Shown piece by piece: positions 9,778 to 11,039 of a stretch of 22,496 nucleotides of DNA (position 1 is the first letter of the stretch; each line of letters opens with the position of its first letter). A model generated the notes under the pieces. The model had not been told where the DNA came from. It saw only the letters and a list, made by a program, of their open reading frames with translations, and searched no databases. The stretch is taken from the IMG/VR virus record IMGVR_UViG_3300008114_001632, one strand, 5' to 3'. The position numbers and the translations under genes were made by a program. The DNA is from a virus (taxonomy: Duplodnaviria > Heunggongvirae > Uroviricota > Caudoviricetes).

Positions 9778-10164
9778 TTACAATTTGTCGTCTAAGTTAG
9801 TTGCTCGTTTAGCCATAGCGCCTACAGATGCTCCAGCATTTGATCTGTCACCTTGAGGTACATCTGATGGTGCTTTTTTAGTCTTAGGTTCTATTCCTCG
9901 TTCACTGAAGTTTGCTATTAGAGCTTTTATTCTAGGATCTGTGTCATAGGCTGCTTTGAAAGTATCGTAATGAAACTCTTCAGAATCTACATTCTGCATT
10001 AATTTATTAAGATCAAGATTCATCGCACCTGATTTAATTTCATTTGGTCTGGGCTTATTAAAATGCAAATAGGCAGTAGTACCTTTACGGTCTGCACTGC
10101 CTATTACTGTTCTTAAAACTTGTATTAGTTTTGTTGAGTCAATTGATGTTTCAGCTTCAGTTAC
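9778..10164 (-). CDS. 128-aa -1 frame extension (VTEAETSIDSTKLIQVL...NLDDKL), probably expressed as a fusion to 10161-10994
   Basis: Frame is open from 10164 through the TTG at 10068 used by the ORF track; no ATG/GTG/TTG or clear SD lies between the slip site and 10068. Confidence 0.7.
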   Translation of the reverse strand, partial: VTEAETSIDSTKLIQVLRTVIGSADRKGTTAYLHFNKPRPNEIKSGAMNLDLNKLMQNVDSEEFHYDTFKAAYDTDPRIKALIANFSERGIEPKTKKAPSDVPQGDRSNAGASVGAMAKRATNLDDKL

Positions 10165-10994
10165 TTTTTTTTTGAACTTAGTAATGTGCCTAATCTGCGG
10201 GAAAACTGTATTGATTCGCGCTTTGCACGACCAGCTTCTTCAGCACCACCTGCTGCTGGAGCGGCTGTTGCAAATTCATCTTCATCATCTAGAGTTGGTT
10301 CCATGTCATCGCCTATATCTCCGCCCATGTCTGGCAATGGCTCTTCATCGCCTACGTCTGCGCCCATTGTGTCTGTCGGCTCAGCTTCACCTGTTAGTTG
10401 TCCAACACCTTGTGTTAGTGCAACACGAGTAGTTTCCATTGCAGCATACAATGATTCTAGTGCAGGCTTAACTGAGTTAACAAATGCGTCTGCCTGTTCT
10501 TGGCCCATTTCATCACGCACTGCGTCAGCTAGGTCAAGCATAGATTCTGTCTGCATTTCTGCTGTGTCTTCCATCCAACCAGTAAGACGATCAACCATAT
10601 CTTTAGCTGCCATTACTAGCTCTGCATGATCTTCTGCGCCTTCAACTATTCTAGAATCTTCGTCTACAATTTTAGCAATTTTCTTTTTCTTTTCTTCTTT
10701 TTTACGCTTTTCATCAGCAGTCTTTTTAGGATCAGCTACATCTTCGCGCTCTAAAATAGCAGCATTTAAAACGTCTAGGAATAGTTTTGATTTTTGGTAG
10801 CTTTCGTTCTTAAGTACAGAACCAAAACTTTCATTTGTTTCTACTTGCGAAATCTTTGTGCGCAGTCTGTTTCGAGCATCCTGTAGTTGCTCAAGCGTAA
10901 AAGCACCGATATCGATTCTAGTGCCGAATCTTTTAGCTAAACTTTCGTTTAGGCTTTTAGCTGTCATTGGTTTAGATATTTCTCTAATATTCAT
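10161..10994 (-). CDS. Acidic, helical 277-aa protein, probable prohead core/scaffold-like or internal head protein
   Basis: MNIREI N-terminus, several [LIV]-x-E sites (SLNES, IVEGA), coiled-coil character and an acidic low-complexity linker; function is an inference. Confidence 0.6.
   Translation of the reverse strand: MNIREISKPMTAKSLNESLAKRFGTRIDIGAFTLEQLQDARNRLRTKISQVETNESFGSVLKNESYQKSKLFLDVLNAAILEREDVADPKKTADEKRKKEEKKKKIAKIVDEDSRIVEGAEDHAELVMAAKDMVDRLTGWMEDTAEMQTESMLDLADAVRDEMGQEQADAFVNSVKPALESLYAAMETTRVALTQGVGQLTGEAEPTDTMGADVGDEEPLPDMGGDIGDDMEPTLDDEDEFATAAPAAGGAEEAGRAKRESIQFSRRLGTLLSSKKK
10164..10170 (-). other. Candidate -1 slippery heptamer A_AAA_AAG (within an A9 run, 10165-10173)
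   Basis: Reads TCA AAA AAA AAG TAA in frame 0; the heptamer is correctly phased and immediately precedes the stop. Confidence 0.7.
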
Positions 10995-11027
10995 ATTAAC
11001 TCTTCCTAGTTTGAATAGCGTACACTT

Positions 11028-11033
11028 TATTTA
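11028..11033 (-). promoter_or_regulatory. TAAATA late-promoter-like motif
   Basis: CTAAATA in the 10995-11039 intergenic gap, 33 nt before the ATG at 10994. Confidence 0.65.
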
Positions 11034-11039
11034 GTCTTT

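Follow-up and report, generated by a model that had tools for sequence, protein, structure and literature searches.

How a long reading frame without a start codon comes to be translated is the question raised by a locus in a 22,496-nucleotide (nt) stretch of viral DNA (IMG/VR record IMGVR_UViG_3300008114_001632; Caudoviricetes), referred to here in its entirety as the window. On its minus strand, the open reading frame (ORF) P0001, of 277 codons, ends in AGT TCA AAA AAA AAG TAA, giving a protein with the tail SSKKK, and the −1 frame, P0002, runs on from the same site for another 128 codons. The earliest ATG, GTG, or TTG of P0002 is a TTG at position 10068, 32 codons into the frame; the −1 frame is open from 10239, and there is no start codon 5′ of the run of nine A's (A9) either. 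The run holds the slippery heptamer A_AAA_AAG in the zero-frame register, directly followed by the stop codon. An earlier note on this DNA had described the ORF end, the heptamer, the stop, and the 128-codon frame with no start in its first 32 codons, correctly in every element, and had proposed that −1 recoding gives a 277-amino-acid (aa) form and a ∼405-aa fusion. We put the probability at about 0.8 that −1 recoding at the A run does yield both products, predicted to be a 277-aa form of 30.4 kDa and a 405-aa fusion of 44.5 kDa (...SSKKK-VTEA...), and that this recoding is real and under selection, a reading that the comparison of related sequences strongly supports.

A conserved A run and a start-less frame in related phages

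We fetched related loci from IMG/VR, 30 by the downstream part and 80 by the upstream part, which left 108 informative loci in addition to the window. P0001 has a large number of homologues (n = 4521), and in all 108 loci, as in the window, a P0002 homologue follows directly after the P0001 homologue. Near the end of the upstream ORF, 86 of the 108 loci (one of them clipped by the contig end) carry a run of at least seven A's, and their −1 frame stays open over 105 codons or more. In the other 22, which lack such a run, the downstream gene stands in the +1, 0, or −1 frame and comes with a sequence resembling a ribosome-binding site (RBS), an ATG, and a short N-terminal leader of its own; one of these 22, L098, retains a minimal A6G heptamer. 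An in-frame fusion of the two homologues was found in none of the 108 loci, nor was a fused protein found among the 120 best P0001 homologues, of which ∼100 end in KKK or SKKK and a minority in SSRN, SSR, TSR, SSSNT, and the like. The heptamer is thus conserved in homologues that are not single ORFs.

When identical junctions were counted once, 67 of 79 had a run: A9G in 44 junctions, A10 followed by T in 8, A9C in 7, A8G in 5, A6G in 2, and A9 in another phase in 1. The run is 9 nt long in 52 of the 67, 10 in 8, 8 in 5, and 6 in 2, so that 65 have at least 8 A's, and all 67 contain A_AAA_AAN in register. All 54 of the representative junctions have the six A's that precede the shift point, whereas the flanking positions vary (entropy, 1.4 to 1.9 bits), showing that the run is far from a chance occurrence. 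In several lineages, a stop codon of the −1 frame lies 0 to 2 codons before the run, so that the shift can occur only within it. The run is followed by G, A, or C, each of which gives Val, Ile, or Leu in the −1 product, so that conservation of this base reflects the trans-frame protein as much as slipperiness. One locus, L035, has a tandem partial duplication (L035:2501-4792) with a second copy of P0001 residues 116 to 276, an A10 run, and the −1 domain; it may be an assembly artifact or real, and the near-twin L039 does not have it.

The start-less frame itself behaves as a coding sequence. In 46 of the 54 lineages, the open −1 frame up to the first conserved helix is devoid of ATG, GTG, and TTG, so the initiation codon of its own that, according to the earlier note, would have spoken against the proposal is missing in most of them. 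Over the 15 codons of helix 1, entropy by codon position is 0.78/0.52/1.41, and the other frames of this stretch are mostly closed; the high third-position value indicates that the start-less stretch is translated and under purifying selection on the protein. Purifying selection is seen in both frames, across sequences as little as 27 to 60% identical. An AlphaFold2 model of P0002 from a 50-sequence alignment has a predicted local distance difference test (pLDDT) score of >90 from about residue 8 to residue 93, with block values of 91 to 95 over residues 11 to 90, and starting at TTG-33 or ATG-48 would truncate this fold by the loss of helix 1 and strand 1. Together with the conserved run and the lack of in-frame fusions, these data bear out the two-product proposal.

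The A9 length is not an assembly slip, given that gene calls on 27 contigs (the longest of 320 kb) gave the identical 277-aa product, that a DNA contig from an independent run covers the stretch with zero differences, and that 67 of the 79 distinct related junctions carry a run. The stretch is present in 20 public runs from 16 studies, and one contig from an RNA library crosses the run with A9 and no indel. Assembled contigs, the material of this comparison, thus answer the question of A9 versus A10 in favor of A9, although minor run-length variants would not show in them. One 5.6-kb contig encodes a 289-aa protein, P0003, that otherwise equals P0001 but reads into the zero-frame continuation after ...SSKK; for this, an A must be lost and a G gained close by, and such a pair of indels is probably a read or assembly error. 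A second contig from the same metagenome matches the window only in a 46-nt island about the slip site (10155-10200, three differences) and is unlike it on either side; it comes from a related phage whose DNA is still recognizable at the recoding site only.

These data also bear on explanations that do without recoding. Homopolymer runs are hypermutable, and replication slippage between A9 and A10 could create a subpopulation with a truly fused gene, for which the indels around the run in P0003 might speak. Such phase variation is very unlikely, since all 67 run-bearing junctions are in the nonfused register, the exact 277-aa product recurs on 27 contigs, and the conserved hairpins at weak sites (see below) point to translation, although contigs would miss rare A10 genomes. 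P0002 might instead be an ordinary gene started from the internal TTG or from the ATG at 10023, with the A run merely encoding the Lys tail of P0001; AGGTG lies just before this ATG, and automatic annotation offers an 81-aa version from Met48 and many clusters of 80 to 85 aa. But Met48 is not conserved among relatives, whereas residues 1 to 47 are conserved, bear the coding signature, and include helix 1 and strand 1 at a pLDDT of >90; [LIV]-x-E at residues 1 to 3 is kept in 53 of 54 lineages though no start codon precedes it; and lineages without the run always have an ATG upstream of helix 1. We consider an internal start highly unlikely. Homopolymers are error prone in some sequencing chemistries, but a homopolymer assembly error or a pseudogenized fusion is scarcely credible when the same sequence stands in many independent assemblies from at least 16 studies and both frames are under purifying selection in such divergent sequences.

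Probable slippage by the ribosome or by RNA polymerase

Sequence alone cannot separate the two ways in which the frame could be shifted, since −1 slippage of the ribosome and an mRNA with an extra A give the identical protein. The caveat in the earlier note that RNA polymerase slippage would lead to the same fusion stands. We give roughly even odds to a mainly ribosomal process, a distinctly smaller chance to a mainly transcriptional one, and a smaller chance again to something else or no shift at all, and both processes may act together. Most ribosomes would translate the 277 codons and stop at TAA, releasing an acidic, mostly helical protein, while a minority would move one base back on the A run (TCA AAA AAA AAG, TAA) and read the 128 further codons into the fusion. 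Most likely, tRNA-Lys would slip by −1 on A_AAA_AAG, aided by the directly following stop (a “shifty stop”), and stuttering of RNA polymerase on A9, adding one A to some mRNAs, would be a probable contributor.

The observations in favor of the ribosome come from the weaker variants of the site. The four A9C lineages have the same nine A's with a less slippery A-site codon, and all of them have very strong downstream hairpins (minimum free energy [MFE], ∼−22 kcal/mol; z, −3.9 to −7.2). In the A6G lineage L098, a hairpin stands 2 to 5 nt from the heptamer (z, −2.7), and hairpins are also found at some A10 sites; the 38 A9G junctions are without one (median z, −0.6, like the control). That hairpins accompany the weaker A9C and A6G sites suggests that ribosomal −1 slippage is the selected process, and the invariant core, exactly the six A's of the heptamer, was counted in the same direction. 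In hairpin-bearing lineages, the 5′ arm has changes that match synonymous substitutions of the 3′ arm (GTG to GTA and CTC to CTT). RNAalifold found no consensus structure for seven such relatives, whose 5′ arms are in different registers, so the hairpins were judged sequence by sequence. A zero-frame stop adjoins the site in 25 of the 38 A9G junctions, including that of the window, which is reportedly the classical “shifty stop” setting (Weiss et al. 1987, listed in PMC5009743).

Several points weigh against a ribosomal shift with the fusion as its product. In the window, we found no downstream hairpin (MFE, −5.1 kcal/mol; z, +1.1; 70 nt), no well-spaced Shine-Dalgarno (SD)-like element, and nothing credible in Rfam at the slip site. 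Sites of the A_AAA_AAG type can do without a stimulatory hairpin, whose place may be taken by a stop codon directly 3′. The G after the run need not reflect slipperiness, since the −1 product needs Val, Ile, or Leu there. The phage has a tRNA-Lys(CUU) beside its tRNA-Lys(UUU), and a cognate reader of AAG should lower slippage in the A site, an argument known from Thermus thermophilus dnaX, where transcriptional slippage on A9 is used (PMC5009743). Nine is the modal run length of the family, and it is at this length that RNA polymerase slippage becomes important in many bacteria, as exploited by insertion sequence (IS) elements (PMC1088944); the ninth A, moreover, is at a synonymous site (TCA in 48 of 54). 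Finally, the data are at the contig level, where the plain A9 of the RNA-library contig cannot reveal a minor slipped species, and the fusion protein is a prediction from sequence.

Some of these points are shared by the view that the same two products arise mainly by transcriptional slippage on the T9 template, through A10 mRNAs, with a minor ribosomal share. The distribution of run lengths with its synonymous ninth A, the A9G majority (including the window) without a stimulatory hairpin, the phage-encoded tRNA-Lys(CUU), and the precedents of T. thermophilus dnaX and IS elements with A9 all fit it. It does not explain why A9C lineages with the same nine A's have very strong hairpins, which are relevant to translation only, why L098 retains only A6G with a hairpin nearby, or why the invariant core coincides exactly with the six A's of the heptamer; furthermore, other A9 and A10 runs lie inside long ORFs of the same genome, so slippage there is tolerated or low. 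A mainly transcriptional origin appears possible but less likely than not to us.

These other runs were located in the 111.6-kb fragment of an uncultured freshwater phage within which the window sits (∼32% complete according to CheckV). They lie at 30423 (A9), 56268 (A10), and 72227 (T9) of that record; the former two are inside long ORFs without an alternative open frame and the last is between genes, so that the P0001/P0002 run is the only long run to connect one long frame with another. With 4 found versus 12.8 expected, runs of 8 fall about three-fold short of a first-order Markov model, and runs of at least 9 number 4 versus 6.9 expected, a sample too weak to decide the mechanism. The genes for tRNA-Lys(CUU) and tRNA-Lys(UUU) stand side by side at 70506-70661 of the record, in a tRNA island of 28 genes, and the phage-supplied AAG reader could modulate slippage at A_AAA_AAG.

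Comparison with dnaX shows how the site resembles known ones and where it departs from them. In Escherichia coli dnaX, the same heptamer, decoded by tRNA-Lys, provides two products of one gene (tau and gamma) in a set ratio; however, the shift there leads to a stop after one codon and a shorter product, whereas here it would add 128 residues, and E. coli dnaX needs an upstream SD-like element and a downstream stem-loop, whereas the window has neither and has the zero-frame stop directly after the heptamer. The T. thermophilus dnaX and IS element sites (PMC1088944, PMC5009743) share the nine sense-strand A's, with slipped mRNA altering the C-terminal part of the product, and T. thermophilus dnaX is similar also in the separate tRNA-Lys species for AAA and AAG that this phage has. 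In these systems, mRNA heterogeneity has been shown, whereas the present site is known from assembled sequence and its weaker variants carry hairpins, from which a ribosomal component is argued.

The two proteins and a candidate cargo role

In P0001, the N-terminal domain is conserved and is joined by a linker rich in Lys to a long helical hairpin, after which come a disordered acidic stretch and, at the C terminus, a basic helix. The protein is predicted to be all-helical, with the hairpin at residues 100 to 201 (model predicted template modeling score, 0.30). The earlier note had called the protein head-core-like. Its only family match is a partial one to PHROG 14154, “virion structural protein” (E value, 1.4e-11); Pfam had no match for P0001 or P0002, a comparison of the P0001 profile with PDB sequences found none, and a fold search with its model returned only uncharacterized viral proteins and a 771-aa protein of Atu_ph07 at an E value of 3e-3. 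Among 50,697 phage records, blastn of the 2.3-kb region and tblastn of P0002 gave no match, and tblastn of the whole of P0001 gave only a 593-aa protein of Sinorhizobium phage Phosso that shares the central domain. This central domain is homologous to proteins of ∼210 aa from jumbo phages (hhalign, 89%; E value, 2.5e-6; 100 columns).

A complete relative of 357.6 kb carries the same module, and its T4-type head genes, which lie far from the module, encode a Peptidase_S77 protease like gp21, a scaffold of 364 aa like gp22, and a capsid protein like gp23, with the gp22-like gene between the other two. This T4-type head module with its own gp22-like gene shows that the clade consists of giant T4-like phages and that the recoded gene is not the canonical scaffold. 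No gp22-, gp67-, or gp68-like similarity of P0001 was found in Pfam or PHROG. Searches for Peptidase_S77 and gp23 in the 111.6-kb record of the window gave no match, which, the record being a fragment, does not imply absence. We therefore retain only part of the label: homology of the central domain to jumbo-phage virion proteins detected by mass spectrometry speaks for a virion protein, whereas the gp22-like scaffold of the complete relative lies elsewhere, leaving a head-core identity for P0001 unproven and the label the weaker part of the earlier reading.

The jumbo-phage proteins come from cultured phages (Serratia BF, gp296/gp297; Klebsiella fENko-Kae01, ENKO_328/ENKO_329; Salmonella PHA46; and Escherichia A4), where a ∼110-aa gene and then an exonuclease gene come after a ∼210-aa gene; in the window, one extra gene, of 206 aa, comes before the exonuclease. 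Both proteins of the pair are annotated as detected in virions using liquid chromatography-tandem mass spectrometry. In contrast to the locus in the window, the pair consists of separate genes 12 nt apart, with no A run and no frameshift, and the larger protein is without the first ∼115 residues of P0001. The ∼110-aa protein has the leader M-R-F-S-D-L-T-E and a C-terminal motif, V-[ST]-x-M-A-[KT]-[KR]-A, like that of P0002; given that a profile-profile comparison of the two was not significant (probability, 2.5%), their link comes from synteny and short motifs only.

Two features of sequence were noted alongside. In the linker (residues 86 to 116), most P0001 homologues have K-P-D-[FY]-[LI]-D-x-D-K-D-G-[DN]-K-K-E-P-M-K-K-A, which has the look of a calcium-binding loop; the linker in the window is instead rich in Lys and Glu, and some homologues have Cys-rich or ∼100-aa insertions there. 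Near the C termini are similar invariant motifs, A-G-R-A-K-R-E-S in P0001 (residues 254 to 261, ∼10212-10235) and M-A-K-R-A-T in P0002 (residues 117 to 122, ∼9799-9816), with E-R-E-M-K-E-S and M-A-T-K-A-A as counterparts in the cultured phages. They may be a shared docking or processing motif.

The folded α/β domain of P0002 has its best structural matches mostly among winged-helix domains (MCM8, JetABC kleisin, ORC2, and OmpR type), at Foldseek E values of ≥1.2 and VIA Z scores of ≤5.8, where Z scores below 8 may reflect only a common arrangement; the model thus weakly suggests a winged-helix-like domain. Among AlphaFold Database clusters, only an uncharacterized relative matched. In the ESM Atlas, the downstream part is stored only from Met48 (9778-10023), as “hypothetical proteins” of ∼80 aa to which the look-ups gave no names, with many clusters of 80 to 85 residues. 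Automatic annotation truncates the P0002 domain systematically, and the domain is mis-annotated at scale.

If the fusion is made, the small domain could be released from it. The first codons after the shift encode V-T-E followed by Ala, in which the earlier note had seen a likeness to a prohead-protease site, and the family agrees: in 53 of 54 lineages, an [LIVM]-x-E occurs no more than 12 residues from the junction, compared to 2% of such windows elsewhere in the same proteins. A second candidate site, I-V-E followed by Gly, stands at residues 116 to 118 of P0001; E118 and G119 are invariant in 30 homologues, and the conserved [LIV]-x-E-G precedes the central domain. In T4, gp21 cleaves after L/I-x-E, and cargo on the C terminus of a capsid-targeted protein enters the head (PMC9026906). 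The [LIV]-x-E at the junction would fit release by a T4-type prohead protease, with the reservation that presence of a motif is not proof of cleavage.

The lineages with separate genes suggest how else the domain may be delivered. Where P0002 stands alone, its N terminus is a leader such as M-K-I-F-E-L-Y-E-A, which resembles the T4 capsid-targeting sequence (CTS; for the string, see PMC8442874). In a tree of the P0002 domain, the frameshift state is found on all deep branches, and stand-alone versions are nested at least two times as judged by well-supported branches and five times by parsimony; since the alignment is short and the tree is midpoint rooted, the direction of change is tentative. 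It is plausible but unproven that a fusion by recoding and a leader of its own are alternative delivery routes for the same small domain. For the packaging of T4 CTS and IPIII fusions (PMC9026906), the counterparts here would be the V-T-E at the junction and the CTS-like leaders; the T4 fusions are engineered, whereas the P0001-P0002 fusion would be a natural one, made by recoding, with head targeting as a proposal.

Taken together, these features lead us to a tentative proposal, which we hold to be less likely than not: the frameshift would be a natural cargo-loading device that, at a fixed low ratio, tethers to a carrier targeted to the virion a small and basic domain of DNA-binding-like character, to be freed by a T4-type prohead protease at [LIV]-x-E. 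Lineages without the run would have compensated at least twice with a leader like the capsid-targeting sequence, making recoding and targeting peptide interchangeable, and the ratio could be tuned by tRNA-Lys(CUU). The sequences show the features of the site, their conservation, a start-less frame that looks coding and foldable, and the lack of in-frame fusions; production of the fusion, its ratio, the type of slippage, and the loading of the small domain into the virion are inferred.

Gene neighborhood and significance for the family

The coordinates of the elements discussed here are listed in Table 1. The 141-aa gene is directly upstream of the P0001 homologue in 105 of ∼110 loci as judged by tblastn, which defines a conserved three-part module of this gene, P0001, and P0002; family searches and an ESM Atlas look-up for it gave no informative name. 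The 206-aa gene, in contrast, is found at its position in only 2 of ∼110 loci, and its translation could be coupled to frameshifted ribosomes. Upstream of P0001 is a motif resembling T4 late promoters; across the window, the motif MTAAATA is not above chance (14 found versus 14.9 expected), and only its placement before gene starts suggests a promoter.

TABLE 1 Elements of the module in the window (positions refer to the 22,496-nt stretch)
Element	Position	Strand	Remarks
141-aa gene	11465-11040	minus	Immediately upstream of P0001; first gene of the module; no informative family
T4-late-promoter-like motif CTAAATA	11028-11034	minus	34 nt upstream of the P0001 ATG
RBS of P0001, AGGAAGAG	11000-11007	minus	5 nt 5′ of the ATG; direct read
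P0001, zero-frame ORF	10994-10161	minus	277 aa, 30.4 kDa, isoelectric point (pI) 4.6; stop TAA at 10163-10161; 3′ end by direct read
I-V-E codons, then Gly; candidate prohead-protease site	10649-10641	minus	Residues 116 to 118 of P0001; edge of the central domain
A9 run (plus strand, T9)	10173-10165	minus	Direct read; G at 10164
Slippery heptamer A_AAA_AAG	10170-10164	minus	Zero-frame register, TAA directly 3′; direct read
P0002, −1-frame extension	10164-9778	minus	128 codons and stop TAA (9780-9778); begins GTA ACT GAA GCT
V-T-E codons, then Ala; candidate cleavage site	10164-10156	minus	At the junction; would free a domain of 13.7 kDa, pI 8.9
Folded α/β domain of P0002 (predicted)	10143-9886	minus	Residues 8 to 93; AlphaFold2
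206-aa gene	9776-9156	minus	Next after P0002; ATG one base past the −1-frame stop (TAA c ATG); no obvious SD

Programmed frameshifts in phages are textbook knowledge for tail chaperones and the T7 capsid. Lambda G/GT and T7 10A/10B resemble the present pair as late genes of phage morphogenesis whose ORF, by a −1 shift close to its end, gives a minor, C-terminally extended form, and the lambda G/GT frameshift is conserved across many phages; they differ from P0001/P0002 in gene families, slippery sequences, and roles. We know of no programmed frameshift described in T4-like giant phages, and a literature search of incomplete coverage found no description of one in these phages or in the P0001/P0002 family. 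What is added here is thus a new gene family in which recoding is widely conserved.

This family is very large, with its 4521 homologues and hundreds of viral contigs, and the calls of ∼80 residues for the downstream part mean that thousands of database entries misstate the product. It also amounts to a natural experiment, in which variants of the slip site occur with and without hairpins and recoding has repeatedly been swapped for a separate gene with a leader; we regard this covariation of slip strength and hairpins and the repeated exchange with a two-gene arrangement as the more interesting aspects. Such a family could reveal how stimulators coevolve with the strength of their slippery site and why a ratio of products is set by recoding and not by two genes. 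The cargo-loading proposal, if true, would show how giant phages add proteins to the interior of the virion.

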